64,000 nucleotides of DNA from Candidatus Marinacidobacterales bacterium. GTDB lineage: Bacteria; Acidobacteriota; Vicinamibacteria; Marinacidobacterales; DATDRI01. Positions 2,546-20,850 of the stretch are shown piece after piece. The DNA lies in NCBI GenBank assembly GCA_965226495.1, contig OZ245365.1:4896001-4960000 (forward strand). Direction: 5' to 3'. Under the pieces are notes generated by a model. It had not been told where the DNA came from. It made no database searches and saw only the letters and a program-made list of their open reading frames with translations. Every line of letters starts with the position of its first letter. Position 1 is the stretch's first letter. The translations under genes were made by a program, and so were the position numbers.

Positions 2546-2595
2546 GGTAGCTAGGCTAGGTGGGAGGTCTGGAGTTTGTCAAAGAGGTCCTGGCC

Positions 2596-3522
2596 ATGAA
2601 ACTTGAAGAAGTGGGCGACGACATCTACGCATGCGTTTCCGAGCGGACTGCTTCCGGGCATTCGAGCTCGGGGCTAATCGACACCGGCGGAGGCCTCGTG
2701 GTCGACACCCAATTCGACCTCGCGCACGCGCAGAGGATGCTTCAACTCTTCGGGCAGGTGTGGCGAACGCCACCTCGCCGCATCGTAAACACTCACCAAC
2801 ACCCCGCACATACGTGGGGAAACCAACTCTTTCCGAACGCCGAGATACTCGCGCATCGCCTTGCGCCAGGCCTTCGCGGGGAGCGCCCCGAAGAGATGCA
2901 GCGCCTCCGGGATGCCATCGACTCGCCTCACCCCGGCATCGCAGCCCGCGCGAGAGCGCTCGAAGAATTCGACTTTCACGGGATCGCGCCGAAGTCGGCC
3001 TCGATATTTTTCGACCAGCGACTCGTGCTGCGGCTCGACGGGACCGAGGTCCATTTCATTCACGCCGGGCCTTGCCATAGCCAGGGGGACACCCTCGTGC
3101 ATCTACCGGCCGAGAGCGTGCTGTTCACTGGAGATGTCGTGTGCAGAGACCTAACACCTCTCGTAACCGGAAGTTTCGAGAACTGGATTTCTTGGCTCGA
3201 TCGGATTGTCGAGCTCGGTCCGGAAGTGGTCGTTCCCGGACACGGTCCCGTCTGTGGCATCGAAGGGGTGATGGATGCCAAGGCCTATCTCAGCTACGTG
3301 TGGCTCGAGTCGAAGCGGCACTTTGAGGCGGGGCGTACCGCGATGGAAGCGGCGAGGCGATTCGAGCTCGGGGCTTTCGCAGCTTGGGCCGAGCCTGAAC
3401 GGCTTTTTTTCAACGTGGAGCACGCATTTCGAGAGTTGGGGGGAGGCAAGGCGACAACCGATGCTTCGGCCTCGCTCCAAGAGCCGTGGGAACTCGCGCA
3501 ATTTTGGCAGTCACTTCGATGA
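2596..3522 (+). CDS. Metallo-beta-lactamase fold hydrolase (cyclase-like)
   Basis: LVVDT, THQHPAH, HSQGD, FTGD and PGHG motifs; ATG at 2596 after GAGG. Confidence 0.85.
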   Translation: MKLEEVGDDIYACVSERTASGHSSSGLIDTGGGLVVDTQFDLAHAQRMLQLFGQVWRTPPRRIVNTHQHPAHTWGNQLFPNAEILAHRLAPGLRGERPEEMQRLRDAIDSPHPGIAARARALEEFDFHGIAPKSASIFFDQRLVLRLDGTEVHFIHAGPCHSQGDTLVHLPAESVLFTGDVVCRDLTPLVTGSFENWISWLDRIVELGPEVVVPGHGPVCGIEGVMDAKAYLSYVWLESKRHFEAGRTAMEAARRFELGAFAAWAEPERLFFNVEHAFRELGGGKATTDASASLQEPWELAQFWQSLR

Positions 3523-3574
3523 ACCCGGTAAAATTCTAGGGGAAGTTGACGGAGACGGAATCAAAGGAGTGAAC

Positions 3575-5356
3575 ATGGAACACAATGCACGATCCTTCTG
3601 GGGCGTCGTAGTACTCGCGTTAGCGATGTCGACCGCGGCCTTGTCCGCCGACGAGCGACCCAACATCGTGATCATTCTGGCGGATGACATGGGCTACTCG
3701 GACATGGGCTCGTTCGGTAGTGAGATCCAAACACCGAACCTCGACGCCCTGGCACAAGAAGGCGTGCGCTTTACTCAGTTCTACACGCACGCGAGCTGTT
3801 CTCCGACACGCTCGATGCTGCTCTCTGGGACGGATACACATGTCAATGGACTCGGCAACATGGACGAGTGGACCGCGCCCAACCAAGTAGGGGTGGCGGG
3901 CTACGAAGGCTACCTTAACGACGCCGTCGTGACGCTGCCACAGCTTCTTAAAGATTCGGGATACCACACCTACATGACGGGTAAGTGGCACATGGGTAAA
4001 GCGCCCGACAAGATTCCCCGCGCCCGCGGCTTCGAGCGCGATTTCAGTCTTCTCGACGGCGGCGGCAACTACTGGGACATGAAGAACGTGACCGCCCTCT
4101 CGCCTCGATTGGTGTTTACCGAAGACGGATTCTACCTGAGCAAGCTTCCCGAGGACTACTACGCCACCAAGACCTACACCGACAAGATGATTGGGTTCAT
4201 CGAGGCGAACCGCGGCGACGACCAACCGTTCTTCGCCTACGTGGCGCATCAGGCACCCCACGACCCCTACCATTTGCCGCGGGAGTGGCGTCGCCGGCAC
4301 GTCGGGGAGTACGACAAGGGGTGGGACGCGGTGCGACGCGAGCGTCTTCAACGACAGATCGAGCTCGGCATCGTGGCCAAGGACACCGAGCTTGCCGAGC
4401 GCATGTGGTTCGTTCCCGACCCCACCGTCCTCGCGCCGGCACCTCGTGCATTACTCGGCATGAAAATGGAGCTTTATGCGGGGATGATGGAGAACCTCGA
4501 CCATCACGTCGGGCGGCTCATCGACTACCTGAAGTCGATCGACGAGTACGAGAACACGATCTTCATCGTTTTCGGTGACAACGGCGCCGAGGGGGCAGAT
4601 CTCTTCGAGATGATCGCGGGCACACCGGGCACTTTGAACTCTCTCTCCGCCGCGATCAACTGGTCCCAAACGCACCCCAAGGCCTGGGGCGACCCGGGCT
4701 CGTTCGTCGGCTACGGGCCCATGTGGGCTCAGGTATCGATGACGCCTTTCAGCCAGTACAAGGGTTGGCTCGCCGAAGGAGGGATTCGTAACGCCCTTAT
4801 CGTGAGCGGGCCGGTGACAAAACGCCCCGCGGGGAGTATTCACCAAGCCGTCATGCACGTCGGCGACATCATGCCCACGCTGCTCGAGATCGCGGGTGCC
4901 GAGTATCCCGAGACGCACAATGGACGCCGGACGCCGCCCCTAATCGGCACGTCATGGAATCGGCTGCTCGCCGGAGATGTCGATTCGGTTCGGAACGACG
5001 AGGACTATCTGGCCTGGGAGCTCTTCGGAAACCGTGCCGTGCGTCAGGGAAATTGGAAGCTGCGGTGGCAGTGGAAGCCGTACGGAAAGGGCGATTGGGA
5101 GCTTTTTGACTTGGCTTCCGACCCCGGCGAGCGCAAGGACCTGGCCTCGGAGCGGCCGGAGCAAGCGGCCGCCTTGCTCGAGAGCTGGGACGACTACGTC
5201 CGCGCGAACAACGTGATCCTTCCGAGCCGCTCCGTCTATGAGGGCTTGGAAGACCAGATGTCGCAGCGCTTCCCGAATGATCCAGGATATCCGCCGCTCA
5301 TCTACAAGCGGCAGTTCGTGCCGCCCTCCGACATGGTGAAGGAGCCGAAGAAATGA
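3575..5356 (+). CDS. Arylsulfatase (AtsA-like) with signal peptide
   Basis: RPNIVIILADDMG, CSPTR formylglycine motif, GKWHMG; ATG 3575 after AAGGAG. Confidence 0.92.
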   Translation: MEHNARSFWGVVVLALAMSTAALSADERPNIVIILADDMGYSDMGSFGSEIQTPNLDALAQEGVRFTQFYTHASCSPTRSMLLSGTDTHVNGLGNMDEWTAPNQVGVAGYEGYLNDAVVTLPQLLKDSGYHTYMTGKWHMGKAPDKIPRARGFERDFSLLDGGGNYWDMKNVTALSPRLVFTEDGFYLSKLPEDYYATKTYTDKMIGFIEANRGDDQPFFAYVAHQAPHDPYHLPREWRRRHVGEYDKGWDAVRRERLQRQIELGIVAKDTELAERMWFVPDPTVLAPAPRALLGMKMELYAGMMENLDHHVGRLIDYLKSIDEYENTIFIVFGDNGAEGADLFEMIAGTPGTLNSLSAAINWSQTHPKAWGDPGSFVGYGPMWAQVSMTPFSQYKGWLAEGGIRNALIVSGPVTKRPAGSIHQAVMHVGDIMPTLLEIAGAEYPETHNGRRTPPLIGTSWNRLLAGDVDSVRNDEDYLAWELFGNRAVRQGNWKLRWQWKPYGKGDWELFDLASDPGERKDLASERPEQAAALLESWDDYVRANNVILPSRSVYEGLEDQMSQRFPNDPGYPPLIYKRQFVPPSDMVKEPKK

Positions 5357-6324
5357 ACCCAGTCCGAAGCATGCGATTAATTTTGGCGGTGGCGATCGCG
5401 TTCGTGGCGGTCGGGGCGACGCCTTCCTCCGCCCAAGTGCCGCCGCGCTTTTATTGGAAGAGCCTCATCGGCGGGCACGCGGTGCCGGTCATCGGCATGT
5501 CGATGGGCGGCAACGCAAACCCCATCGACCCAGCGCATACCGTGGTCCCGGAAGCGAGCTTCGAGGCCACCGTGGCCCTCGCCGGCTACGCCCATATCTT
5601 TACCCTTTTTGATCGGTCCGCCATGGCGGCGGTGCTCGTTCCCATGGGGCGACTCTCGGGTGACGGGTCGATCTTCGGCCGCACGTTCGGCGAAGACGCC
5701 AGCGGCTTCGGCGATCCGCTGTTCGAGATCGACCTCAACCTCATCGGCCCCGAGCCCATCCGGAACATCCCCGATCTCATCCGCTACGAACCTGGCTTCT
5801 CCCTCGATGTTCTCGCCGACCTGGCTTTTCCTATCGGCGAGTACGACAGCGAAGAACCGCTGAACCTCGGCCAGAACCGTTGGTATGGCCGCGTCGGCGC
5901 CCCCATCGTATGGCAGCTCGGACCGTGGATCCCCGGCCGCCGGACCACCGTAGAGTTGCTACCCTCGGTGTGGCTTTTCGGCGACAACGATGACTTCGTG
6001 GGTCGCAACCTCTCCACCGATCCTATGTTTCAGCTCGACGCTCACTTGACGCGTGATTTGGTCGAGCAGTTCTGGGCTTCGTTCGATGTGACCTGGGTGA
6101 CCGGCGGCCAAGCCAGCCTCGATGGCGTCACGGGTGAGAAGATCGACAACCTCGGGGTCGGTCTCACGCTCGGTTACCAGCTCAATGACAACCTGCAGGT
6201 CACTGCAGGCTACATGGCCACGGTGAACGACGGTGAGCCCACTGACTTGCGCATGGACCGGTTCCGAGTCTCGCTGGTCTTCGGCTGGCACCCGCTCGTC
6301 GAAGGCATGAAGCGGCTCGAGTGA
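5353..6324 (+). CDS. Outer-membrane transporter, phenol MetA-pathway-like beta-barrel
   Basis: Signal peptide, SGFGDP, PIGEYD...NLGQNRW motifs. Confidence 0.7.
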   Translation: MNPVRSMRLILAVAIAFVAVGATPSSAQVPPRFYWKSLIGGHAVPVIGMSMGGNANPIDPAHTVVPEASFEATVALAGYAHIFTLFDRSAMAAVLVPMGRLSGDGSIFGRTFGEDASGFGDPLFEIDLNLIGPEPIRNIPDLIRYEPGFSLDVLADLAFPIGEYDSEEPLNLGQNRWYGRVGAPIVWQLGPWIPGRRTTVELLPSVWLFGDNDDFVGRNLSTDPMFQLDAHLTRDLVEQFWASFDVTWVTGGQASLDGVTGEKIDNLGVGLTLGYQLNDNLQVTAGYMATVNDGEPTDLRMDRFRVSLVFGWHPLVEGMKRLE

Positions 6325-7067
6325 GCCGTGACGGCATGAGGCGCACACTCGTGCTGGTCCCGCTGCTCATTGGAAGTATCGCGCAGGCCCAAGATCAGGA
6401 GGACTCGGCACAGTTCTGGGGAACCGCGGTTTTTGGCTTCCCCAAGGGTGACCGCCTCCTTGCCGAGATCCGCACCCAGGCGAAGACACAATACTCGGGG
6501 GCTGAGACGTGGCGAGACCTTGAGGTAACTCCGGTCGTCGAGTACTACCCGAATCGATGGCTAGATGTCGTCGGCGAAGCGACCTTCGGCTGGACCCGAC
6601 AGACGAGCGACGTGAGCACGGTCGAGCTCACGCCGAGACTCGGTGCGCGGTTTCATTTCCTGAGCAACGTCAGGACGATGCTCGATCGGAATCCTCTTGG
6701 CCGGGTCGCTGTCTCCGACCTCGTCCGCTTCGAGCAACGGAATTTCTGGTACTCCGACGGAAGCGCGAGCCACGAGACGCGGCTTCGCAATCGGGTCGGG
6801 CTCAAGGTCGCGCTCAACCACGCCGAGCTAAGCCGCGATGGCACGCTCTACTGGATCGCCGATTTCGAGTTCTTTGTGCCGCTGTCGGGTGACGTGCCGG
6901 AACGCTTCGCGAGTAAGCGGCGCACGCGGGCGGGCCTCGGCTATCGCCGGAATAATCGCTGGCGGTTCGAGGCTCTCTATATTCGTGACACGGCGCGGGA
7001 CACGACCGACGAGGAGTTCGACACCGCCGCCAACATTGTAAACGCGAGGATCAAGATTCTCTTTTAG
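6321..7067 (+). CDS. DUF2490-like outer-membrane beta-barrel
   Basis: Signal peptide, RFEQR and RLRNR motifs, terminal Phe. Confidence 0.6.
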   Translation: MSRDGMRRTLVLVPLLIGSIAQAQDQEDSAQFWGTAVFGFPKGDRLLAEIRTQAKTQYSGAETWRDLEVTPVVEYYPNRWLDVVGEATFGWTRQTSDVSTVELTPRLGARFHFLSNVRTMLDRNPLGRVAVSDLVRFEQRNFWYSDGSASHETRLRNRVGLKVALNHAELSRDGTLYWIADFEFFVPLSGDVPERFASKRRTRAGLGYRRNNRWRFEALYIRDTARDTTDEEFDTAANIVNARIKILF

Positions 7068-7076
7068 GAGGCTCAG

Positions 7077-7832
7077 ATGTATCGAAAACTGTCTAAGAAT
7101 CGCCAGAAAAGAAGAGAGCAGGCCCCGAAGCTCACGACACACCAGCTTCGAGGATACCAAGTTCCAGTACTGGTCGCGTCGCTGGCACTCTCCTCCCTCG
7201 CCTTCGGCCAGCAAAAAGAAGAATTCGCTCAGGCCCAGAAAGAAAACGGCGCCGCTCTCAAGCAGTACACGTGGAAATCACGCACCGAGATGAAAATGAA
7301 GGGTGAATCGAAAAGCGTGAAGCTCGAGCAGGTACGCTACGACCTAGACGGCAAGCAACAGAAAACGGCTATCGGCGAGCCGCAGAAGCAACAGGCACAA
7401 CAGGGGGGCGGTGGTCGGCGTGGAGGAAGAATGAAAGCGAAGATGATCGAGAAGAAAAAAAAGGAGTTCGCCGAGCTCATGAAGACTCTTGGCCAGCTCG
7501 TTGCCTCCTACGCGCACCTGCCTCCAGACAAAATGCAAGCCTTCGCCCAAAACGCAACGATGGGACCCACTGAAGACGGTGGCGTAATGATCCAGGGCCT
7601 AAACGTCTTGCATCCAGGGGACACGATGAGGGTATGGATCGATCCCGCGAGCTACATGATGCGGCGCGTCGAGATCAACACGGCCTACGATAAGAACCCG
7701 GTGCACTTCGCAGGGGAGTTTCGCCCCGTCTCGGACGGACCGACCTATCCGGCACGGCTTGTGCTCGAGTATCCGGATGAGGAGGTCGAGCTCGTGATCG
7801 AGAACTACGATTACCAGAAAGTCGGGATGTAG
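7077..7832 (+). CDS. Hypothetical exported protein
   Basis: AGGAGG RBS, hydrophobic stretch ending AFG-QQ, LKQYTWKSRTE. Confidence 0.65.
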   Translation: MYRKLSKNRQKRREQAPKLTTHQLRGYQVPVLVASLALSSLAFGQQKEEFAQAQKENGAALKQYTWKSRTEMKMKGESKSVKLEQVRYDLDGKQQKTAIGEPQKQQAQQGGGGRRGGRMKAKMIEKKKKEFAELMKTLGQLVASYAHLPPDKMQAFAQNATMGPTEDGGVMIQGLNVLHPGDTMRVWIDPASYMMRRVEINTAYDKNPVHFAGEFRPVSDGPTYPARLVLEYPDEEVELVIENYDYQKVGM

Positions 7833-7834
7833 TC

Positions 7835-7933
7835 ATGAAGACATATCGCTTCTCACCGATCCTCGCTTCGCTTCTTTTCGCCAGCGGCGCCCTCGCGCAG
7901 GAATCTCCACCGATCCATCCGAAAGTCGGAGGA
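7835..7933 (+). pseudogene. 5' remnant of an exported protein gene
   Basis: Clear signal peptide MKTYRFSPILASLLFASGALAQ, then the frame runs into an antisense kinase fragment. Confidence 0.5.
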
Positions 7934-8164
7934 CTATTGAAGGCGGCAGATGTGTGGATGATTCAGACTGGAGACGGCGCGGGCTTCTCGCTCGAATCGC
8001 TCTTTGAGTTGCGGGTTATCGGAAAGATGAGAGGGAAGGACTTTAATGGCGACCGTACGATCGAGTCGAGTGTCCTTGGCTTTGTAGACCTCACCCATGC
8101 CACCCGCACCGAGAGGTGCGAGGATTTCATAGGGACCCAGCTTAGTGCCGGGAGTTAATGACAT
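7934..8164 (-). pseudogene. Truncated Hanks-type Ser/Thr protein kinase (N-lobe only)
   Basis: LGAGGMGEVY, VAIKVL, RFEREARAVSSLNHPHIC, then stop. Confidence 0.88.
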
Positions 8165-8519
8165 GGCCAACCCTTTGAGCGTGAAAATAGCGCTCTACAG
8201 GCAAAAAATTCAACGGGGGCCGTCGGTCGCTCCCGGGAAGCCGTCAGCTCCTTACTTATGATCCCGGGCCAATGCCTTCCCCCGCTGGCTCGAGGATGCT
8301 ATTCTTCAGCTTCTTGAGCAGGGGAGAACGCAGCCACGGAGCGAAAATCCACCGGCATCGGAGGGCCACCCGCGATCAAAATCCCATCCCCTACTACGGC
8401 AAGCGTCGCTCGTCCGAGCTCTGGGACATGATAGTTCAGGGACGCACGGAAGAATTCCTCCGGGCAGGTCGTTCTAGCGGAGGACGCAATGGTGATCGAC
8501 ATCGCGTAAGGAGTGGATC

Positions 8520-9440
8520 ATGAGGAAAGAAAGACTATTGCCGATAGTGGTAGGTCTCTTACTCGCAGCCGCTTCGACGGCGCAGGACAGGTCGAAATAC
8601 TACACGAACCAGCATCCGGAGGAGTTCCTGCCGCTGGACTGGATTGCATTCTACGACGAGATCGATGCGAGCACGGCGGCGACCCGCAAGGAGTTTCCAC
8701 ATCACCTGGACTTGGCCTTCGGCAACGATCCCAAGCAGAAGCTGGATCTTTATCTTCCCAAGGAAAAGGCGGAGGGCGCTCCCACGTTCTTGTTCCTGCA
8801 CGGGGGCGGTATGCGCGAAGGGGACCGCGCCCATTACGGATACATCGCACGGCCATTTGCCGCCAACGGCATCATCACGGCCGTAGCTAGCTACCGGCTC
8901 GCCAGCAACGGATTCCAATATCCAGCGCAACCCGAAGATGCCGCCGCCGCGGTAGCCTGGATTCATAAGCATGTCGAGGAGTACGGAGGCGATCCGCAGC
9001 GCATCTACGTGGGGGGCCATTCGGCGGGCGCGCTTCTCGCCGCCTACCTTGGCGTGCAAGGCGCCTGGCGACAGAAAAAGGGAATACCAGACGGAGTGCT
9101 CAAGGGCATCGCACCGGTCAGCGCTCCCTACGACGGCGAAGATGCAGAGACGGAAGCGGAGATAGCGACGGCGCGTGTCGTTCGCCGGGCGGGGGAGGTC
9201 GATGCGTCCGTCCCAGATCCCGACAAACCCCCGCCCCGCGCGGTAGTGGCCGTCGGTTCCGTGGAAGCGTACGTAGACTCATCTCGGGAATTCGCCGACA
9301 AGTTGAGGGCCAAGGGCGTGGAGGCGGAGTTCCTCGTTTTAGAGGGCGAGGATCACGCCCAGACAGCACTATCCCTAGGCGATGAAGACAGCGAGCTCTT
9401 TCGCGCCGTGCTGAAGATGATTCAGATTCAGACTCCATGA
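8520..9440 (+). CDS. Alpha/beta hydrolase (HSL family esterase), exported
   Basis: HGGG, GHSAG, GEDH motifs; signal peptide. Confidence 0.88.
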   Translation: MRKERLLPIVVGLLLAAASTAQDRSKYYTNQHPEEFLPLDWIAFYDEIDASTAATRKEFPHHLDLAFGNDPKQKLDLYLPKEKAEGAPTFLFLHGGGMREGDRAHYGYIARPFAANGIITAVASYRLASNGFQYPAQPEDAAAAVAWIHKHVEEYGGDPQRIYVGGHSAGALLAAYLGVQGAWRQKKGIPDGVLKGIAPVSAPYDGEDAETEAEIATARVVRRAGEVDASVPDPDKPPPRAVVAVGSVEAYVDSSREFADKLRAKGVEAEFLVLEGEDHAQTALSLGDEDSELFRAVLKMIQIQTP

Positions 9441-9640
9441 CCGACTCGCGGCCGTGGTGCGAAGAATCCCCAACCTGCGCTGGTGGATCGTAGCCCTTCT
9501 TTTCCTGGCCACGGCCATCAGCTACATCGAATCGCTAGACCCTTGCGTCGTCGCGCCGACGTTGCGGGACGAGCTAATAGGGATCTCCAACTGCGGCTAA
9601 GCCCGCATCCTCTCCAGCTTTCTCCTGGCCTACGCGGTCA
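9437..9640 (+). pseudogene. Frameshifted 5' fragment of an MFS transporter (ExuT-like)
   Basis: Encodes RIPNLRWWIVALLFLATAISYI followed by disrupted frames. Confidence 0.65.
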
Positions 9641-9661
9641 TGAAGGGGTAGTCTCTGTAAC

Positions 9662-9674
9662 TTGGTACCGGGGG
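9662..9674. other. Attachment-site core of the serine recombinase element
   Basis: TTGGTACCGGGGG identical to 18800-18812 (tRNA-Leu 3' end). Confidence 0.7.
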
Positions 9675-9940
9675 GGCGGCATTTCTAGAAGTACCTAAGC
9701 GGCGGTACCGGATTGGCGGGCGGCTGGCGGATGACGCTCGGTTACTCTACTGAATCCCCAACCTGCGCTGGTGGATCGTAGCCCTTCTTTTCCTGGCCAC
9801 GGCCATCAGCTACATCGAATCGTACCCTTGCGTCGTCCCGTCGAGCGGATCTCCAACGGCGATTTGAGCCATTTATCGTAAGGCCCAGCGGGGTAATGTT
9901 ACTCTACTTCGTATCCCGTCCGGACGGCGATTTGAGCCAT

Positions 9941-10711
9941 TTATCGCCCAGCGGGGTAATGCAACTTGAACGAGATCCAGAAAAACCCTAGAACAAAGGA
10001 AAGTGCCCAACCAACCGCCCATCCTCCGAATATCACGGTCGACGACATGCCAATCGCTACCACAACACCCACCAATCCAAGGAGAACCAAATATATGACC
10101 GGCTCACCATAACGGTAGTGAAAGGGCCTCCTACGCAACCAACGATTGTTGATGCCTTCCCCTTTGGTCAAGCCGCCTAGCTGCCCGGCCGTTGTCCACC
10201 GGAAATCGATTTCTGAGATGTCCACAATCTCAGCCCGAACCTTCTCCTCATCTCCAGTCGAATACGGAGCCGCTACCAACGTCTCCAGCAACACCTTCGT
10301 ACCAGGGTTGAACAGATCCCACCGAATTTCGACTCTGTGGGGGCTCTCCACGTTCTTGCTGTCGAAGATGCTCTTGTAGTGAAGAGTCACTGTAGAATCG
10401 CTCTTCGTGATCTTGGCTCCGAGAACACGCCCCGGGGCATCCCAGGTCAGTGGGGTAACGATCTCATCCCCCTTCAAAGGTTTTTGCCCCGCGTTCTCGA
10501 TTACGAACGCAAACTTCGTGAGATCCTGGATCGTCGCCTGTTTGAACTGGATCGAGACCTCGTCAGTTAAATCCTCAGCCACCGCCATCATGGAGGTTGG
10601 GCGGAGTGCGCACCAAACAAGGCGGCGCTCCTTCCTGAAGAAGGTTAGGTAGATGGTAGCAAGAGCAGCAAGAGCAAGAACGCCAGTGCCAAAACCTACA
10701 AGAAATTGCAT
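9941..10711 (-). CDS. Hypothetical membrane protein (1 N-terminal and 2 C-terminal TM helices)
   Basis: 256-aa ORF with hydrophobic ends and a beta-rich middle. Confidence 0.7.
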   Translation of the reverse strand: MQFLVGFGTGVLALAALATIYLTFFRKERRLVWCALRPTSMMAVAEDLTDEVSIQFKQATIQDLTKFAFVIENAGQKPLKGDEIVTPLTWDAPGRVLGAKITKSDSTVTLHYKSIFDSKNVESPHRVEIRWDLFNPGTKVLLETLVAAPYSTGDEEKVRAEIVDISEIDFRWTTAGQLGGLTKGEGINNRWLRRRPFHYRYGEPVIYLVLLGLVGVVVAIGMSSTVIFGGWAVGWALSFVLGFFWISFKLHYPAGR

Positions 10712-10746
10712 CCAAACCCCTACTCAGTCAATTGCACCTAATGCTA

Positions 10747-10959
10747 CTACCTTTTCTTCTTCTGGGCACGGGCCTTTGCTTCGCGGGCGGTCTTGGCGGC
10801 GTGTTGCTTTTCTGTAAGAAGTTGTAGGTTGGGAACCCTATCTGATCCACCGTCTTCAAGCGGGACTTTGTGGTCTACTTCCTTTCCTTTCGGAATCTTC
10901 GTCAAACCCTTCTTCTCCAGAAATCGCTCTACAACCTTTGGATCACGCTTGTTCGGCAT
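10747..10959 (-). CDS. Small HNH endonuclease
   Basis: EVDHKVPLEDGGSDRVPNLQLLTEKQHAAKT; ATG at 10959 after GGGAG. Confidence 0.85.
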   Translation of the reverse strand: MPNKRDPKVVERFLEKKGLTKIPKGKEVDHKVPLEDGGSDRVPNLQLLTEKQHAAKTAREAKARAQKKKR

Positions 10960-10984
10960 GATGACTCCCTTCGTTTCTAAGGCT

Positions 10985-11570
10985 ACCCCCCTGCCGGGCT
11001 TCGCGCAAGAAGACCCGGTACCTGAGAATCGCCGGAACCTCCCGCGTAGCATGGCGCGAGTCCAAGATCGGGAACGCCCGGTAACGTACCAGATCGCCGG
11101 GGCGCTGCCGGCGGGTGCTCCCTGACCTAAGGTCAGGGTCAGGCTGTGTTACAGGGGTTTCGATTTCGTGAAAAAAGGACCCAGCCGCCCCGGGGCGGAC
11201 ACACCATGTGAACCGGGAACCCCCTGGGCAAAGCTAGGCCGCTGAAACGGACCCGAGCGTCGAGAACTGGCGGTCCCTGCCGCCGCCTCTAGCTCGGAAA
11301 TGATTCCGTGTCGGCATTCCAACTATTAGACCCTAGTCGGCCGAAAAAAACGGTGATTTCTACGTTGGGGTTTACCTCACATTCTGTTAGGGGGAATTCC
11401 CTACGATCACTCCTCGCGTGGGTCGACGCGCAGTCGTCGGAGGCAGCGTGACGATCCCCAAGGTTCCTAAATCCAGGAACCCCTGCACCGCCGCACCCGC
11501 CCATCGAGGCGGAATTACATGATTACATCCTCGCCCGCGCCGCCCGGCGCAAGTGGCGGAGGTTCGGGTA
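10985..11570 (+). ncRNA. Candidate structured ncRNA 1
   Basis: Chain of hairpins, GCAA loops, G-U pairs on + strand, no credible ORF. Confidence 0.35.
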
Positions 11571-11692
11571 GGGGGTCCCCGGGCCGCGGCGTCGTCAATG
11601 CTAACCTCTGGTAAAGTATCGGACCAATTGGTCCTATTCTTTTCGGGCTGTCCTACCGTCGTAGGGGCGCCCCTCGCTGCGAGCAAACCCCC

Positions 11693-11724
11693 ATTTCGAT
11701 CGCGCAAATTTGCGCGATCGAAAT
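11693..11724. repeat. Perfect 32-bp palindrome
   Basis: ATTTCGATCGCGCAAA|TTTGCGCGATCGAAAT. Confidence 0.95.
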
Positions 11725-11907
11725 CATTCGGCAAATTTGCCTCTTGATTTTCGGTTGTTCCGATCGCGGGTAGGGGTTCGCGTCCCGCGCTGCGAGCTTC
11801 AAAACCCCCCCGCTTAGCACATTCGAAGCATAACATCAAGCAAAAGTAGCCTCTGTAACTCGCTGTGTTATAATAGGTTACTAAGTTTCTTCAAAAGTCA
11901 AGAACAC

Positions 11908-11936
11908 TTGACTTTTTAGTGTTTTTGTAGTATAAT
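11908..11936 (+). promoter_or_regulatory. Sigma70 promoter with overlapping inverted repeat
   Basis: TTGACT-17 bp-TATAAT; AAAAGTCAAG-aaca-CTTGACTTTT covers the -35. Confidence 0.75.
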
Positions 11937-12095
11937 GCCTGCGAACAAAAAATCAATCCTTAGTTTCCTTTCTTGGTGATACTGCCGGCGGGGCTACGTA
12001 GCCCCGCCGCGCGTCATTGTTTCACCTCGAAAGTCGAAGCGTTATCAAGAAAGGTCCCAGAATATGAGAACCACCAAAAAACCGGAGATCCTCCG

Positions 12096-12689
12096 ATGTT
12101 ACAGGTAGTGATCCCGAGCCCTAACCTCCCTATCCCTCACTTCCCGCCGATGCCGATGCCGTTCCGCCGGCCGCCCCGCAAGGATCCGCGTCCGTATATA
12201 CCCCCGCTGCCCGATGGGGGGCGGGGTGATTTCGTCCCCGTCCCGCAGGTTGAGCCGCGGAATTCGGAGGCGGAACCCCAAGCGGCTGCGGAGCTACTCG
12301 ATCTCGAAGTCAGGCGCACATCCGAGCGCGATAGAAAGCGGCGCTATCGCATGCAGCGCCGCCTCGCTACGGGCACCGACCGCCCTCCCCTGACGCCCAT
12401 ACAGGCCCAGCGGGCTCGGATGTCCACGTTCGAGTGGACCCGGAAGAACCCCGAAAAAAAAGCGGCTCAGAACAGGCTAGCGGCTCGCCGACTGGCGGAG
12501 ACGTACGAGGGGCATCCTATCCGGCTAATTGAAGGCTTCCCCACATCGAGGGAAGTTGAAGGGCCTCCAGTTGAGCCTTTAACCAGATTCGAGCGGGATA
12601 ATTTGATGGCTAAATTTTTCCCATCTTGTAATCCGCAAACTGGCCGGATTACAAACCATTTACAAGAATCATTCACTCTTAAACACTGA
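12096..12689 (+). CDS. Hypothetical Pro/Arg-rich protein
   Basis: Open frame downstream of the promoter, GGAG RBS before ATG; start uncertain. Confidence 0.45.
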   Translation: MLQVVIPSPNLPIPHFPPMPMPFRRPPRKDPRPYIPPLPDGGRGDFVPVPQVEPRNSEAEPQAAAELLDLEVRRTSERDRKRRYRMQRRLATGTDRPPLTPIQAQRARMSTFEWTRKNPEKKAAQNRLAARRLAETYEGHPIRLIEGFPTSREVEGPPVEPLTRFERDNLMAKFFPSCNPQTGRITNHLQESFTLKH

Positions 12690-12936
12690 CACGAGGGGGT
12701 TTACTGTACTATGAAGGCATCTTGTAATCTTGTAACCTGTAATGTGGCTTCCTATAGGGTAAGGGCAAGATACGGTCCCATCCCGTCCCACCACCCCCAA
12801 ACGGGACCGTATCTGGGATTAGTAGTCTATATAGTTATTACAAGATTACAAAATTACAAGATACTATAACTAACAGATAACAACGGATTTACCTCGTAAA
12901 CATCTTGTAAATGAGGATATTACATGAATACAAGAT
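12620..12936. repeat. Inverted iteron-like array around a central inverted repeat
   Basis: ATCTTGTA repeats (12719-12743) face ATTACAAG repeats (12837-12862); IR AGATACGGTCCC/GGGACCGTATCT between them. Confidence 0.75.
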
Positions 12937-12980
12937 CAACCCCCTCGCTAGCGCGGAGGACACAAACGAAAGGAAAAAAA

Positions 12981-13499
12981 ATGAGAAAAACCGAACGACA
13001 GGCCCGGAGGTCAGACATGGCTCGCCGGCGGCCCGATGTTGAAACTGAATCCCGCATCACAACACCAGACGACGACGCCCCGGCCCCCTCGTGGGTCAGG
13101 TCAGCTCCCGGCGGCACAGCCGGATGGGCTAGCGCGGCCGGCCTCGTGGGCAAGGTCGCTATTACGATGCCCGAGGGGGCCGGATATTTTTTGCCATTTT
13201 ACTCGAAAGTTTTGATCGTCAATATGCAGCAAGCAAAAATTTCGTATTTGGTCGACAGCGTTTCGTGCTATCACGCGATGAATGGATTTTTCTTCGAGCC
13301 CGACGTCGAAAGCCTCGTGGAAGTTTTGGATGTTGCACAAGAAAACTTTAGAAAGAAAATTGCCCATCTAAATCTTATTGAAGATCAGCCGATAGAAACC
13401 GCGCTCGGCAAGCTGGCGAAATTTCCAATTTTAAAACTTGCTTATGATCGCATCTCGGCCGTCGTTGAATTCCAACATATTGAGAAAGGATCACACTAA
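12981..13499 (+). CDS. Hypothetical protein
   Basis: AAGGA RBS; stop overlaps next start (TAATG). Confidence 0.65.
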   Translation: MRKTERQARRSDMARRRPDVETESRITTPDDDAPAPSWVRSAPGGTAGWASAAGLVGKVAITMPEGAGYFLPFYSKVLIVNMQQAKISYLVDSVSCYHAMNGFFFEPDVESLVEVLDVAQENFRKKIAHLNLIEDQPIETALGKLAKFPILKLAYDRISAVVEFQHIEKGSH

Positions 13500-14371
13500 T
13501 GCTCGACTTGTTTCGAAGTAATGCACCCCGAAGTTTGTTAACGGCACTCCGGCCGGAAGAAAGTTTTCGCGCCGCGGCAACCGCTGATCTAATCCCAGTT
13601 AATGAGGATCTTTTGGAACTCCTCGAACTCGATGCTACAGACAATTCCGCCTTCCAAATTATTGCACGGGAAGAACGCGATACATTTTTCGCAAACAGCG
13701 GCGAGTGGCTCGAAATTCACGACGTCGAGCCCGGCCTCGAAGGGCGCCCCCGACTCGCAGCAACCCGGGAGCGCATGCGATCGTTGGGCGAGAAATCCAA
13801 AACGATCTTAAATTGTGACGCCGATTTGAACGGGCGTTTCCCTAATTATTTAATCGAAATTAAAAACCGCCGCGCAATGATTTCTGACGAACTCAAACGG
13901 CGCTATGATCTCGACAATTATCCCCAGCAACTTGTGGATGCTTTTGATGCTCGCGACAAGCTCACCGAAGCTCTCGAACAATTGAGACACGAGCAGGTCG
14001 TTCTATACAAAAATAATCGGTTTGATAACGATTTCAAAGATCGCCTGCTAAAATTACAAAACCAACAACTAGATGCTCAAAACGCCCAGCGTAAACTTGC
14101 GAGGACTTTCGATGTCTACGGCAACCCCCAACGGCGGTGGACAACCCCCGAGGAATGGGCGCCGTTCCGCGAGCGGCGGCTACTGCGCGACGAAACTTTG
14201 CGCATAGAAAAACAGCGGGTAGAACTCTCGCCGAATTTGGAGGCGCAAGCTGTTTTATTGGGAACAAACAAAATCGAAAAACCGCCGAGGCCGTACCCGA
14301 AAGCGGAAACGAAACCCCCCGAGCCCTCGGCACCGCCGACTACTTTAGACGGAGGCTTGCTGAGAAAATAA
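13499..14371 (+). CDS. Hypothetical coiled-coil protein
   Basis: 290-aa ORF coupled to the upstream gene. Confidence 0.7.
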   Translation: MLDLFRSNAPRSLLTALRPEESFRAAATADLIPVNEDLLELLELDATDNSAFQIIAREERDTFFANSGEWLEIHDVEPGLEGRPRLAATRERMRSLGEKSKTILNCDADLNGRFPNYLIEIKNRRAMISDELKRRYDLDNYPQQLVDAFDARDKLTEALEQLRHEQVVLYKNNRFDNDFKDRLLKLQNQQLDAQNAQRKLARTFDVYGNPQRRWTTPEEWAPFRERRLLRDETLRIEKQRVELSPNLEAQAVLLGTNKIEKPPRPYPKAETKPPEPSAPPTTLDGGLLRK

Positions 14372-14373
14372 TA

Positions 14374-14835
14374 ATGGATAACGTTAGAATAGAATACCCC
14401 CCGGAAACGGCGGAAACGGCGCCCCTAGTTTGCACGAGAATTGCGGACGCGGTTAAACTAAAAGTTGAGCATGCGCAACTGGCGAAGTGGCTCACGGATC
14501 TTGCAGAGCCCCACGTGAAAAAGCATCTCCCCGCGTGGAGGGTCGAAGTTGCAGAGTCGATCACGTCTAAGCAACTCAAAAGAGAATGCCGCGCGTTGAC
14601 TCTCGGTGGCCCGAAAATCATTAAGTTATCGATGTCGGCCCTCGGCAAGTTAACCCGCGAGCAAGTCGAAAACATAATCATGCACGAGATCGCGCACGGG
14701 CTCACACATGACGCGGGACGAGCTACTCGCTTCCATCACGGCCCTGCGTGGCAAGATGCCGCGAAGAATCTGGGGGTGAAGTTTGATACCCGCGATCTTG
14801 TTTTTTCGGATTCTCTTAATATGGGGTTGAAGTAG
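14374..14835 (+). CDS. SprT-like zinc metalloprotease
   Basis: IIMHEIAHGL (HExxH) plus HHGPAWQ...LG. Confidence 0.8.
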   Translation: MDNVRIEYPPETAETAPLVCTRIADAVKLKVEHAQLAKWLTDLAEPHVKKHLPAWRVEVAESITSKQLKRECRALTLGGPKIIKLSMSALGKLTREQVENIIMHEIAHGLTHDAGRATRFHHGPAWQDAAKNLGVKFDTRDLVFSDSLNMGLK

Positions 14836-14844
14836 AATTTCAAA

Positions 14845-15585
14845 GAGACTCACCGCTGCGAGCACTTTGTGATCCAGAAGGATTACAAGACTGAAGCCCA
14901 GGTTTAGGCACCGTGTGGTGCTAGCGTCACCGCCCATCCCAAGTTGGCGGAAATAAAAGTCGCGCCCGATAAAGTTAATGTGCTTAAGGTGTTGTTCACT
15001 TCATTCGCCTATCAATGGTCGGGTCGAACCGCCCGATAGGAAAGAGGTGATCAACTGGTCCGAGGTCCGAGGTGAGAACCCTTGGTTAGGTAAACTTGGT
15101 GATAGGGCGCACCGCTTGCCCAAGAGCTGCCAGCGGTGCATAACCCGTGATTTCGAGGGGGCGTAAACCCCCTCGAAACATTTTAACAAAACATTCTCCC
15201 CCCCTCCCCAAGGGATAAGGCTCACCCGCGACGGGTGAGCCTTAACTTTGGGGCGCGGCGCTCGGCTTGAGCCACGCCCTCGATCAACTGTATTTAGCCA
15301 CAGCGAGGGCGTGTGCCCGCCAGCGTTTGCAGCGTCGAGCCTGCGGGTGTCTGTGCGCTTGAAAGGGATAGGCACGCCAAGAATTTAAGAACGATTTTAG
15401 AAACGCCGGGGGCTCTCTTCCACCCCGGCTAGGGCACACTCCGATTGCCTCGGAGTTGTGCCCGAGGGGATTGGGTGGGTTGGGAACGGGATCACCGTCG
15501 GCCCTCTCCGCGGGGACGCGCTCCCTCCCCCCCGGCCCCTCATCGGACTGCGAGAACGGCGACACTTGACGTTAGTGTTAGCTCG
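14845..15585 (+). ncRNA. Candidate large structured ncRNA 2
   Basis: At least ten stem-loops, several with 10-13 bp perfect stems; G-U pairs on + strand; T-loop-like motif. Confidence 0.45.
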
Positions 15586-15803
15586 AAGCGAAAAAGAAAA
15601 AAAGATATTTAGTAATACGGTTGCCCTCAACTCGAAGCGGTAGGGACTCGAAAACCACGGAGGGGGGTGGGTGTCTACGCGAGCCCGGCCAGTTTTACAC
15701 TTTGCCGCCACTTTTTTCGAGATATATCAGTAAAAATAATGGTGTCGCGATTTTTCAATCGCGCAAAACCCCCGAAAATCAGGGGAGATAGGAGCGAAAA
15801 CGA

Positions 15804-16055
15804 ATGATTTCCAAGGAAAAGGCATTAGAAAGCGCCCTCTGTCATCACGACAGTCCCGAGCACCGGCTGATGGCCTGCTGGCAGTGTAAAACCGGATACG
15901 GAAATCGAAAACCGGAAGCCAAGTGCCGATCCGCGTTGGTTTTCGGGGGGACCTTCATAACGCCCGAAGGCGAGATGCCGATCTGCTTCGAGTGTAACAA
16001 AGTCGAAGAAAAACGGCGAGAGATGGCAGAGCAAGAGCGATATGGCAAAAAATAA
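15804..16055 (+). CDS. Small Cys-rich (zinc finger-like) protein
   Basis: CWQC and CFEC motifs; AGGAG RBS. Confidence 0.65.
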   Translation: MISKEKALESALCHHDSPEHRLMACWQCKTGYGNRKPEAKCRSALVFGGTFITPEGEMPICFECNKVEEKRREMAEQERYGKK

Positions 16056-16479
16056 AGTCGGACGCCCTCGCAAGGGCAGCAAGGTCGATTTCGAGGCGGT
16101 GAGGGATCTCGCGATCCGCGGCGTCGAGCACGCCGATATCGTCGAGCACCTCGGGATCCATGAGCTTGTGCAAGTACAAGAGGCTAGCGTCAAGGTTCGA
16201 GAGACTGTGCGAGCCGGCCACGCGCAATTCCGGATCGCTATACAAAAGAAGCTCTATTCGGAGGGGGTTCTCGAAGGCAAAATTTCCAGCCTAAGAACGC
16301 TTGCGGAGAATTGGCTCGACAGATATGGGGACGCCGCCCCGAAAATTGACGAGGCAGGGATCGTCGAGGAGATCGCCTCCATCATGCAGGCCAACGCCGC
16401 GCTTCACAAAAAACACCACGCCGAAGAACCTTGCCACCTTGCCGGCTGCGGGACTTGCCGAGAACTACATGGGAACTAG
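16042..16479 (+). CDS. HTH protein, possibly terminase small subunit-like
   Basis: GRPRK N-terminus, then a helix-turn-helix-like segment (LAIRGVEHADIVEHLGI). Confidence 0.55.
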   Translation: MAKNKVGRPRKGSKVDFEAVRDLAIRGVEHADIVEHLGIHELVQVQEASVKVRETVRAGHAQFRIAIQKKLYSEGVLEGKISSLRTLAENWLDRYGDAAPKIDEAGIVEEIASIMQANAALHKKHHAEEPCHLAGCGTCRELHGN

Positions 16480-16831
16480 AAAAAACAAACCAAGCAAAAC
16501 CTCGCAGCCTCGTCCGCGAGGAACTGTGGTCAGCCGAGTATCCGAAGCCCTCGGCGCTTTTTTCGGCGGCGATCTCGCGGATATAACGATCACCCTCGCG
16601 GACGGCTCGCAGATCAAAGTTACGGCGGCGGAGGTAATCCAGCGCGATCAACGTCGAGAACAATTCGAGATCGAGATCGACGAGCCCTTGCGGCTGCGGC
16701 TACTCGAAGCCCGCCGTCAGCACTTCCGAAAACACCACCCCGAAGTTTTAGGATTATCTCGCGGCGAGCCGGTTGACTCTGTGTTCGTCGGCACCTTGCA
16801 AGAATTTTTCCAGCGGCGACGCCGCCGCTAA
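16469..16831 (+). CDS. Hypothetical protein
   Basis: Overlaps upstream stop; operon-like spacing. Confidence 0.6.
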   Translation: MGTRKNKPSKTSQPRPRGTVVSRVSEALGAFFGGDLADITITLADGSQIKVTAAEVIQRDQRREQFEIEIDEPLRLRLLEARRQHFRKHHPEVLGLSRGEPVDSVFVGTLQEFFQRRRRR

Positions 16832-16854
16832 TAACGAAAGGAAACAAAAAAACA

Positions 16855-17067
16855 ATGGCAGATTATGACGGCACAGAATTAGAAAAGCTAGCAGAGAAGA
16901 CGTCGCCCGACGAACTCGGCGACTTGATACTACGCCTCGAAGCGCGGGTCAGCTTAATTCAATTTCGGGTTAACGATCTGGAGCAAAGCGCTTACAAATC
17001 ACAAGAACAGATTCGAGCACTCGAAACGCGCAACGCGGAACTCGAAGCCCGTGCGGAGGTTCTATGA
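16855..17067 (+). CDS. Small coiled-coil protein
   Basis: AAGGA RBS, heptad leucines. Confidence 0.65.
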   Translation: MADYDGTELEKLAEKTSPDELGDLILRLEARVSLIQFRVNDLEQSAYKSQEQIRALETRNAELEARAEVL

Positions 17068-17216
17068 AGCTCAAGAAAAAACCTCGCCAGCTAGGTCGGT
17101 ATGGGCGCGGCTGGGCTTGGGTTACGAAGAAGAAAAGGAAAAATGGAAGGCACCGGATCCGTGACATACGGCGGGCTCCCGGCGGGCTGGATCTCGATTC
17201 TATGGGGTTGATCTGA
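17064..17216 (+). CDS. Possible 50-aa basic protein
   Basis: ATGA overlap with upstream stop, GGAGG RBS; MKLKKKPRQLGRYGRGWAW... Confidence 0.4.
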   Translation: MKLKKKPRQLGRYGRGWAWVTKKKRKNGRHRIRDIRRAPGGLDLDSMGLI

Positions 17217-17247
17217 AACAATCACGACGTTAAAAGGAGGTGATCTT

Positions 17248-18903
17248 ATGAAAGCCGCAATTTATGCACGAAAATCCACAGCTCAGAACGTATCTGAAGA
17301 TGCCAAGTCCGTCACGCGGCAGATCTCAAGGGGCAAGAAATTCATCGAATCAAAGGGCTGGAACCATGCCGGTGACTACGTTGATGATGCCACGAGCGGC
17401 GGATCGTTGGATCGTGAGGGTCTAAACAACCTATTTCGGGATGCAACAGCGGGCAGGTTTGATGCGGTCGTGTTCTATGACCTAGACCGCTTCTCCCGTG
17501 CCGATGCTATCGACACCCTAGTTAAGCTTCGGGATTTAACAAAACTTGTAGATGTTTGGGAGTATGGGAACGGCCAACAACTGACGGTTGGTGATCTCCA
17601 GAGCATTATGATTCACTTCGTGGCATTCAGCAATCAACAACAGCGAAAATCCGCTAGCAAAGACACCCGGGAGAAGATGCAGACAGCAGCCAGCGAGGGT
17701 CTTGTTACTGGTAACAAGATCTACGGTTTTGACAATATTGGGCCAAGGGGAAAACGGCAGCGGGTGCCGAATGAGAAACAAGCCGTTATCGTCCGGGAGA
17801 TCTTTGACCGCTACTCGCAACGCGAAGGACTAAAGGCAATCGCACATATTTTGAATGATCGGGGTATCCCCTCCCCTAATCAGAGACAGAGCGGTTGGTC
17901 TCCCAGCACTGTCCGCTGCATTCTCAAAAACAGGATCTACCGGGGTGAAGTTATCTATGGACGTTCCCGCCGATGTGACGAGCAGGATTTACCAGAGCAT
18001 CTTCAGGGACTCCGAAAAGAACCGCGTGTCTGTGTTGATGAATCAAATTGGATCATTACGAACATGGATCCGCTGGTTGATCCCAAGACATTCGATCTTT
18101 GTGCCGCACGTTTTGAATCTCGTAAGCAGAAAAGCGGCCAGCGGAGAGCAGCCCGAAACGTGAGACACCTACTGAGCGGGTTACTAACTTGCCCCTGTGG
18201 CGCTTCATTGGAAGCCGTCAAGAGTGGGCAGCGGAAGCAATCGTATTACGTTTGTAGTCGGAGACGCCGAAAGGGCGCTGCGATGTGCTCGAACACGATC
18301 CGGCTGGAAGTAGAGAAGACAGACGCGATCATTCTCGATGAACTAGAAAACAGTGTGCTTAGTCCTAAGTTTGTATCACGGATCTTGAATGAAGCCCTCT
18401 CAGACGGGGAACCCGCTACCCAGCTGGAGGTGGAGCGGGAGCGGCTCGTTTCGGAAATCGGGAATCTGACGAAGGCTGTTGCCATCGGAGGCGGCGATAT
18501 CCCGGAGCTAGTAGCAGCCCTTCGGGAGAGAACGAAGGCACTAACCGCCGTTGAGGCGAAACTAGCAGCCCGGACAGAGAGACCGGATCGGAAGCAACTC
18601 CGGGAAGCCGTCGAGCAGAGGTGTTCGGAGTGGCGGGAGGTTCTCCGCTCGAACGTAGAAGCGGGAAGGGCGCTCCTAAAGTCCCTTGTGGGGCCGCTGG
18701 AGGTTCATACACCGCCACCGAAGGAGCTAGCCGACAAATATGCTTCCTGGTCGGCTGATGTGAAGCCGGAAGGGGTAGCCCTCGAAGTGAGTACTTCAGT
18801 TGGTACCGGGGGCGGGGATCGAACCCGCACGAGGTTTCCCCCAGGGGATTTTAAGTCCCCCGCGTCTGCCATTCCGCCACCCCGGCAAGAATGTAGTCAA
18901 TAA
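17248..18903 (+). CDS. Large serine recombinase (integrase)
   Basis: IYARKST catalytic motif, DLDRFSR, recombinase domain, CPCG...YYVC...C zinc ribbon, coiled coil; AAGGAGGT RBS. Confidence 0.95.
   Translation: MKAAIYARKSTAQNVSEDAKSVTRQISRGKKFIESKGWNHAGDYVDDATSGGSLDREGLNNLFRDATAGRFDAVVFYDLDRFSRADAIDTLVKLRDLTKLVDVWEYGNGQQLTVGDLQSIMIHFVAFSNQQQRKSASKDTREKMQTAASEGLVTGNKIYGFDNIGPRGKRQRVPNEKQAVIVREIFDRYSQREGLKAIAHILNDRGIPSPNQRQSGWSPSTVRCILKNRIYRGEVIYGRSRRCDEQDLPEHLQGLRKEPRVCVDESNWIITNMDPLVDPKTFDLCAARFESRKQKSGQRRAARNVRHLLSGLLTCPCGASLEAVKSGQRKQSYYVCSRRRRKGAAMCSNTIRLEVEKTDAIILDELENSVLSPKFVSRILNEALSDGEPATQLEVERERLVSEIGNLTKAVAIGGGDIPELVAALRERTKALTAVEAKLAARTERPDRKQLREAVEQRCSEWREVLRSNVEAGRALLKSLVGPLEVHTPPPKELADKYASWSADVKPEGVALEVSTSVGTGGGDRTRTRFPPGDFKSPASAIPPPRQECSQ
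18801..18886 (-). tRNA. tRNA-Leu(TAA)
   Basis: Cloverleaf GCCGGGGTGGCGGAATGGCAGACGC GGGGGA-CTTAAAA-TCCCC, long variable arm, GGTTCGAT, CCA end. Confidence 0.96.
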
Positions 18904-20748: not shown

Positions 20749-20850
20749 CCCCCCTCACCCTACCCTCTCCCCCAAGGGGGAGAGGGAATAACGGAGGGAA
20801 GCCAGCATTCATGGCCCTCACCCTACCCTCTCCCCAGAGGGGAGAGGGAA
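20749..20850. repeat. Two tandem REP-like palindromic repeats
   Basis: CCCTCACCCTACCCTCTCCCC...GGGGAGAGGGAA x2; related inverted copy at 57314-57346. Confidence 0.85.

Follow-up and report, generated by a model that had tools for sequence, protein, structure and literature searches.

What does a spacer of almost one kilobase, without a convincing gene, do in the middle of a small integrated element? The question is raised by a 64,000-nt stretch of contig OZ245365.1 (GCA_965226495.1) from a Candidatus Marinacidobacterales bacterium, which we call the window and by whose positions all features are numbered here. It contains an element of 9.1 kb (~9680-18800) with lower GC content, integrated at a tRNA-Leu gene, in which a 968-nt interval (14836-15803, hereafter the gap) separates an SprT-like metalloprotease gene from the next gene on the + strand. 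A reading made from the letters and their open reading frames (ORFs), the sequence-only reading, had proposed that most of this interval is a large, highly structured non-coding RNA (ncRNA). Our finding is the structured left three-quarters (~14854-15590, the structured domain) of this non-coding spacer. Chance and coding are both excluded for the structured region, which is a real, unusual and orphan non-coding feature of no known RNA family.

The gap is non-coding and single-copy

Every ORF in the gap has at most 124 aa. With a codon model for which 1240 long ORFs of this genome formed the training set, the coding score was negative for all 10 tested ORFs lying inside the gap, and the best of the six frames did not exceed 0.06 throughout 14930-15800. 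The flanking genes of the element scored positive or near zero (about -0.01 to +0.19), and g95-, an ORF that overlaps the SprT-like gene with its 5' end, scored +0.118. Comparison of the gap ORFs with Pfam and NCBIfam (E<=1) gave nil or trivial matches, and codon statistics together with these searches ruled out a protein-coding gene or a pseudogene. The gap is single-copy in its own genome, where a DNA search returned only the self match; being single-copy and without long terminal inverted repeats, it is not a set of repeated palindromes of the repetitive extragenic palindrome (REP) or miniature inverted-repeat transposable element (MITE) type.

The structured domain folds beyond genomic expectation

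The high degree of structure claimed in the sequence-only reading was borne out against shuffled sequences, genome windows and long non-coding-like stretches. For the gap as a whole, the folding energy has z scores of -5.98 on the + strand and -7.44 on the - strand, and none of 20 shuffles on either strand was as stable. Its core (14936-15585, 650 nt) lies 4.1 (+) and 3.7 (-) standard deviations below the GC-corrected genome expectation, a level reached by none of 233 random GC-matched genome windows. Because random genome windows are mostly coding, we added as a control 81 genome stretches of at least 700 nt that are non-coding-like, one stretch of ~6.1 kb being left out; pooled with these, the core ranks second of 82. 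Every overlapping 200-nt window of 14936-15585 stands at or below the 2.6 percentile on the + strand (percentiles regressed on GC content, with 2500 random windows of the same genome as reference), 14836-14935 and 15590-15803 fold ordinarily, and the structural signal is thus confined to ~14936-15585.

The sole other equally foldable stretch among the 81 (positions 3326-4031 of locus L221; G000:C1 about 6218325-6219030) is a MITE-like fold-back with terminal inverted repeats of roughly 23 bp and no Rfam match, which has a peptidase M20 gene on one side and a gene for an SNF-family transporter on the other.

Perfect hairpins of at least 10 bp number 256 in the 6.34-Mb genome, six of them in the element and two of those in the gap. 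A T-tail on either side accompanies 26 of the 256, U-less strong hairpins being the norm here. Many of the 256 belong to a family of REP-like palindromes, CCCTCTCCCC(N)GGGGAGAGGG, in front of which TA or CACCCTA is often found and of which the window has examples at 20763-20786 and 20826-20848; the two perfect hairpins of the gap are unrelated to it. The three strongly structured zones of the element are 11600-12100, 12700-12900 and 15000-15600, all non-coding, and an isolated 200-nt window within a gene (16500-16699) also stands at the 1.0 percentile. The first two zones carry evident DNA-level signals, namely a promoter, a 32-nt palindrome and an inverted TTGTAATC array.

A predicted chain of stem-loops with nested closing helices

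The partition function, run on the single sequence 14836-15620, describes a chain of ~15 different stem-loops (Table 1), in which 192 of the 228 pairs with a pairing probability (P) of at least 0.5 span no more than 80 nt. The strongest elements are those at 15147-15181, 15204-15255, 15271-15316, 15432-15463 and 15464-15541, and the two strongest stems are perfect palindromes, of 11 and 13 bp, without wobble pairs. All stems quoted in the sequence-only reading are present on direct reading, and the perfect ones were reconfirmed: 11 perfect bp at 15151-15161/15168-15178 and 13 at 15216-15228/15232-15244, the latter enclosed by 15206-15213/15246-15253, along with 15109-15116/15132-15139, 15273-15282/15304-15313, 15405-15411/15423-15429, 15432-15444/15450-15463 and 15464-15469/15537-15542. 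One of its pairings fared less well, since CCTATCA (15009-15015) and TGATAGG (15100-15106), drawn as enclosing a T-loop-like hairpin (15067-15072/15080-15085), exist as letters but the ensemble drops both the distal closure and the hairpin and prefers the local CCTATC/GATAGG pairing (15008-15013/15035-15040, P 0.97).

The local stem-loops are enclosed by nested long-range helices, 14854-14863/15581-15590, 14922-14929/15567-15574, 14959-14963/15559-15563 and 15060-15070/15543-15554 (P 0.73-0.96, the outermost having P 0.96), and the limits of ~14845-15585 proposed earlier agree with the outermost one. These closing helices form on the - strand too. Long-range pairs contribute -30.6 kcal/mol, to be compared with -18.6+-3.6 kcal/mol when linkers are shuffled (0/25 reach the real value), -21.9+-4.8 kcal/mol when blocks are permuted (1/40) and -33.8+-5.6 kcal/mol in plain dinucleotide shuffles (14/25). 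Because these controls are mixed, global closure is at best marginal.

The stems had also been described as not being repeats of each other, which holds inside the gap, but the first of them repeats the TTGTAATC motif clustered at 12626-12851. Exact matches to TTGTAATC occur five times in the window, all in the element (12626, 12647, 12722, 12844 and 14881), and the first stem of the gap is made of the copy at 14881 and a near-match at 14867. No recurring motif was found in the gap stems other than the first; an apparent excess of CGAGGG in the stems was set aside, being a post hoc finding that base pairing largely imposes. A scan for G-quadruplex (G4) motifs listed 384 in the genome, five of them within the element, and both arms of the 15464-15541 hairpin carry one (15466-15490 on +, 15523-15539 on -).

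The claim that the strong stems lack U-tails stands in both the terminator scan and a T-tail check. The hairpins at 15151 and 15216 have neither a T-tail nor an A-lead, and the scan found no + strand terminator-like site in 14836-15803, only a weak one on the - strand (15215-15197). An intrinsic (rho-independent) terminator was rejected, there being no GC-rich stem with a direct U-run on the + strand of the gap. The standard promoter scan had no match inside the gap and missed the site at 14811-14838 as well. The linker between the two strongest hairpins resembles a rho utilization (rut) site in composition and might play a rut-like role; the right part of the gap is probably the leader of the downstream module.

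Table 1. Features of the gap, followed by those of the surrounding element (window positions)
Feature	Position	Strand	Details
ORF-free spacer	14836-15803	.	between SprT-like gene and next + strand gene; codon, family and copy-number evidence
Structured domain	14854-15590	+	~20 helices at P>=0.7, most of them local; nested long-range helices close the domain
Stem-loop and inverted pair of operator-like TTGTAATC	14866-14889	.	P 0.94; arms 14867-14875/14880-14888
Compound hairpin	14991-15055	+	11-bp outer helix, CCTATC/GATAGG, inner 5-bp stem; P 0.90-0.97
10-bp stem-loop GCACCGCTTGC/GCCAGCGGTGC	15109-15139	.	P 0.98; inverted repeat I8
Perfect 11-bp palindromic hairpin, extended to 14 bp	15147-15181	.	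stem 15151-15178, loop CGTAAA, no U-tail
36-nt G-free C-rich linker	15176-15211	+	unpaired in folds; between two strongest hairpins
~22-bp hairpin	15204-15255	.	inner stem 15216-15244 of 13 perfect bp, 9-bp outer stem with a single G-U on +; P 0.94-0.98
Compound hairpin	15259-15325	.	12-bp helix 15271-15282/15304-15316; P 0.99; inverted repeat I10
Four stem-loops	15345-15378, 15384-15401, 15405-15429, 15432-15463	+	P 0.77-1.00
Imperfect G-rich/C-rich hairpin, ~29 bp	15464-15541	.	P 0.95-0.96
AT-richer unstructured right part of gap	15590-15803	+	ordinary folding; weak promoter-like site 15752-15779
Weak promoter-like site TTCTCT-16-TAGAAT	14811-14838	+	8/12, relaxed scan; overlaps SprT-like stop codon
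Membrane protein	9941-10711	-	ORF list
HNH nuclease	10747-11052	-	family searches
Strong sigma-70-type promoter, 11/12	11908-11936	+	promoter scan; heads + strand gene array
Three orphan ORFs	11973-14371	+	ORF list; no family match
SprT-like metalloprotease, 153 aa from internal ATG	14374-14835	+	Pfam PF10263, E 9e-09; upstream neighbour of gap
Cys-rich 83-aa protein (Zn-ribbon)	15804-16055	+	ORF list; next gene after gap
145-aa helix-turn-helix (HTH) protein	16042-16479	+	language-model look-alikes
Two small ORFs	16301-16831, 16855-17067	+	ORF list
Large serine recombinase	17248-18903	+	Pfam Resolvase, Recombinase, Zn_ribbon_recom; phrog_95 integrase E 3.5e-90

Folding singles out neither strand

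G-U pairs had been taken to favour the + strand. Three stems do have G-U pairs on + by direct reading, but the overall count is 21-25 on + and 27 on -, and the energy difference between the strands over 650 nt (-5.7 kcal/mol) matches the expectation from G+T content (z -0.22, 135 random windows). Locally the strands can differ, 14936-15135 standing at the 2.3 percentile on + and at the 64.6 percentile on -. Because the overall difference is what G+T content predicts, folding singles out neither a strand nor the RNA level.

No known family and no relative in the collections searched

Rfam 15 was searched at gathering score over the window and at E<=10 over 14600-16000. At gathering score the window contains three tRNAs only, in agreement with the failure of the sequence-only reading to match the region to any RNA family. 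Eight sub-gathering matches were obtained in 14600-16000, none of them to the GOLLD, ROOL, OLE, HEARO or intron models; the best, mir-185 (24.4 bits against a gathering score of 60, within 15464-15541), is spurious. Membership in GOLLD, ROOL, OLE, HEARO or the group I or II introns was ruled out by these scores.

The homologue search was likewise run and yielded no relative of the gap in the collections searched (the unpublished genome G007 is counted in the tallies of relatives only, and no claim is built on it). Against 60 relatives the gap DNA gave a single 38-nt match, in genome G057, and against phage and plasmid collections no match; the element DNA at 11053-17247 had only 27-56-nt matches, in 4 of the 54 other genomes of the order. 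The 13-bp hairpin pattern was absent from metagenome and viral contigs (0 matches in each) and found 39 times in genome contigs, the common part being the palindrome alone. A covariance model built from the single sequence 15146-15318 matched 0 of 150 relatives. Run over 83 loci, this model gave one weak match, in locus L007, judged to be chance because it amounts to a generic GC hairpin that lacks the central hairpin. This locus, in an Acidobacteriota metagenome-assembled genome, has at 9689-9792 a perfect 11-bp hairpin with the loop CGUCAA (CGUAAA in the gap), ~280 nt upstream of a 37%-identical recombinase, a resemblance that we judged to be chance.

The proteins of the element are similarly isolated. 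The SprT-like protein found only itself among 5.8 billion clusters, the 290-aa and 145-aa proteins gave self matches only, and the 290-aa protein was found in none of 400 other genomes of the phylum. In cluster look-ups the element proteins were matched solely by variants that differ at one residue and come from the same strain lineage. Models made with AlphaFold2 in the absence of alignments were poor, with a predicted local distance difference test score (pLDDT) of 53.4 for the 145-aa and 51.3 for the 290-aa protein. As single queries, the 83-aa protein and the recombinase found no related loci. An alignment of the recombinase, used as query, recovered 80 loci, 27-39% identical, from Acidobacteriota, Nitrospira and other groups, none with another element protein or the gap; upstream of the 12 best there was no run of structured windows, by a regression calibrated on the source genome only. 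As far as sequence comparison reaches, the gap and its element are an orphan, a singleton in the collections searched.

The element and its locus

The - strand carries the tRNA-Leu(taa) gene at 18801-18886; a copy of its 3' end is found at 9662-9679 and a split fragment at ~740-858. These copies delimit two tandem islands, the element and a cargo island (~860-9660) with an AraC regulator, a metallo-beta-lactamase-fold hydrolase, a sulfatase and an esterase. Related genomes G002 and G006 have extra tRNA-Leu fragments at the same locus (L129, L131), and the islands are missing within 20 kb upstream in G001 and G002; the locus is therefore an integration hot spot. A housekeeping protein has its closest named relatives in metagenome-assembled genomes of Candidatus Marinacidobacterales (91% identity) and Vicinamibacteria (78%). 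The last ~34 codons of the recombinase are read through the antisense of the tRNA-Leu gene, suggesting an attachment site inside the 3' end of the recombinase gene. By the left end of the element, exact direct repeats of 71 nt (9464-9534/9752-9822) and 23 nt (9856-9878/9924-9946) flank the tRNA fragment at 9662-9679.

The element encodes mostly orphan proteins, and family searches recognised no replication initiator, relaxase or large terminase. The ESM Atlas look-alikes of the 145-aa HTH protein (0.91-0.94) are mostly viral, and the listed clusters carry HTH_23, GP3_package or Sf6_terminase; as a lead only, the protein may resemble small-terminase (TerS) and Xre-like phage proteins.

Other non-coding parts of the element have structures of their own. 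Zone 12620-12930 includes an operator- or iteron-like array (12719-12862), in which three direct copies of TTGTAA(T/C)C (12719-12743) face three inverted ones (12837-12862), with a hairpin of 13-bp stem between the direct and the inverted copies; a further inverted pair of the operator-like motif lies at 12626-12654. A second ORF-poor region of ~0.9 kb (11053-11972) holds a perfect 32-nt palindrome without a loop (11693-11724) and, in 11893-11936, a 10-bp hairpin that overlaps the -35 box of the strong promoter.

What the spacer may do

The stems differ from each other, so that structure, and not a repeated protein-binding sequence, is their common feature; this favours a single-stranded nucleic acid, most simply a transcript of the + strand gene array. 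We tentatively favour the possibility, with a confidence well short of even, that the gap is a cis-acting spacer acting at transcript level as a barrier or in processing or stability between two modules. RNA from the promoter at 11908-11936 would run through an early module (ORFs 11973-14835, the last being the SprT-like gene) and on through the gap, whose transcript would fold as the chain of ~15 different stem-loops. The hairpins would make RNA polymerase stop or pause, or would act as double-strand cleavage or 3'-end-protecting hairpins, and the upstream message would be ended or stabilised. The downstream module, with the Zn-ribbon protein, the TerS-like HTH protein and the recombinase, would be insulated from early transcription and would need either regulated read-through or a weak promoter of its own near 15752-15779. 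Besides, the hairpin that comes first (14867-14888) is a copy of the operator-like DNA motif TTGTAATC of the element.

Several observations support such a cis-acting spacer. The gap lies within a co-directional array under one strong promoter, with no standard promoter inside; its pairs are overwhelmingly local (192/228); strong hairpins without U-tails are usual in this genome, and a G-free C-rich linker separates the two strongest stems. The structured zones of the element are non-coding spacers, the two others carrying evident regulatory DNA, and the structure ends ~210 nt before the next gene, with the AT-richer unstructured stretch between. Long perfect or near-perfect stems (here 14, 22 and 29 bp) are less suited to tertiary folding than to termination, cleavage of the RNase III type or protection of 3' ends. 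Hairpin clusters on mRNA include intrinsic or 'I-shaped' U-less terminators, REP-type 3'-end protectors and RNase III sites between phage cistrons, with which the gap shares its position between cistrons and its strong GC-rich stems (11-29 bp) that lack U-tails; it differs from them in that its hairpins are not repeated in the genome, whose own REP-like family is different, and in having fifteen successive hairpins over 650 nt, far beyond the usual need of such sites. Other points weigh against a cis-acting spacer: the + strand of the gap has no U-tailed terminator, 650-740 nt far exceeds the usual length of a terminator or leader, and the nested closing helices, whose energy gain no linker shuffle reached, suit a discrete folded RNA better; a weak promoter-like site is placed right at the left edge of the structured region. 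Moreover, folding singles out neither strand nor the RNA level, and no homologues of the gap were found in the collections searched.

The evidence can also be arranged around a new large ncRNA, discrete and structured, of ~740 nt (+ strand, ~14845-15590), which the element would make and which would act in trans or as an RNA particle, a mode suspected for GOLLD and ROOL and for the abundant RNA of the ORF-less gap of phage ICP1; we regard this as somewhat unlikely. Its non-coding nature and extreme foldability (no random window as low, second of 82), the closure at 14854-14863/15581-15590 and its linker-shuffle result, the better + strand folding of parts such as 14936-15135 and a promoter-like site (14811-14838) that would start an RNA near 14845 all point that way. 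So do precedents. PMC5737381 describes GOLLD as often lying in prophages and near tRNAs and gives ROOL an average of 581 nt (see also 10.1101/2024.12.08.627333), so that the gap is alike in size class, in being non-coding and in its phage-like element next to a tRNA gene; the tRNA-Leu gene, its 3' fragment and the serine recombinase reproduce the GOLLD context, which is context and not membership. PMC5737381 characterises ROOL-like ornate RNAs by many multistem junctions and by pseudoknots with covariation; the gap has few multistem junctions, its fold in the single-sequence ensemble is mainly a chain of local hairpins, and no homologue, hence no covariation, was found. Neither the GOLLD nor the ROOL covariance model, nor any other Rfam family, matches it even at E<=10, and those two families are widespread while the gap is a singleton. 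The closure is marginal against block permutation (1/40) and ordinary against dinucleotide shuffles (14/25), the 11- and 13-bp palindromes have no wobble pairs, and there is neither an overall strand signal nor a terminator at the 3' edge. A second precedent is phage ICP1, for which PMC7567579 describes an unclassified transcript of ~800 nt in an ORF-less gap of ~1 kb; like that gap and the IIR ncRNA of PLE satellites, ours is a long ORF-free interval in a phage or satellite genome, a likeness by context in which no sequence relation is expected, and flanking inverted repeats of the IIR kind were not found around it. For PLE and P4-type RNAs the same paper proposes action by complementarity to leader regions. 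We observed a 13-nt perfect complement between 15163-15175 (loop and 3' arm of the 11-bp hairpin) and 12692-12704, just past the stop of ORF 11973-12689; as ~0.1-0.25 such matches are expected by chance by our own estimate, it is no evidence, and the 40 complementary 10-mers found compare with 18+-6 for the mononucleotide-shuffled gap, overlapping counts set against a weak control. The more specific version, an unseen class of ~740-nt structured RNA closed end to end, from a satellite-like TerS-encoding element of a marine Vicinamibacteria-type acidobacterium and acting as free RNA (particle, decoy or guide) and not as a leader, appears unlikely to us; if true, GOLLD and ROOL would gain a functional counterpart in a phylum and a type of element from which no such RNA is known.

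A third candidate is a DNA-level site of the excised element, whether a packaging (pac/cos) region, a replication origin, or a cruciform or G-quadruplex recombination or regulatory region, and we consider such a site distinctly unlikely. In its favour, folding is as good on one strand as on the other, perfect palindromes make up the strongest stems, the first stem copies the motif of the inverted iteron-like array 12719-12862, and the element has more than its share of perfect palindromes (6 of 256 within 9.1 kb) and of G4 motifs (5 of 384), with G4 motifs on both arms of 15464-15541. Phage pac/cos regions are located upstream of small-terminase genes, and the gap lies just upstream of the small Zn-ribbon gene and the TerS-like HTH gene, in an element with an HNH nuclease. 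Protein-binding arrays, though, normally repeat one motif, and in the gap none recurs beyond the first stem, so the structured part has no repeated binding boxes; no large terminase or capsid genes, replication initiator or relaxase were recognised, albeit among proteins that are mostly orphans, and the TerS assignment, which comes from language-model look-alikes alone, is a lead only. A chromosomal-type replication origin was rejected, as the DnaA-box consensus with one mismatch occurs once in the gap (15294) and eight times in the window, against 5.1+-2.4 expected, without a cluster. The spacer could, finally, have no function and be decaying, with palindromes built up neutrally, for example by template-switch mutations, which we find quite improbable: the element and its neighbouring proteins are orphans of one strain lineage, no conservation can be shown, and perfect (young) palindromes coexist with imperfect (older) ones, but just one other stretch, of the 81 long non-coding-like ones, attains this stability, and that is a MITE-like fold-back, a tenth of the element is devoted to the gap, and the structure ends sharply at ~15590.

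Meaning for phage-like elements

As a singleton, the gap teaches nothing by comparison until relatives are sequenced. It nevertheless makes up a tenth of a 9-kb element with few other parts. The function of the large structured non-coding regions of phage-like elements, such as GOLLD, ROOL and the ICP1 gap RNA, is still unknown, and each independent example in a small, tractable element is a new route to test the role of such RNAs or spacers.

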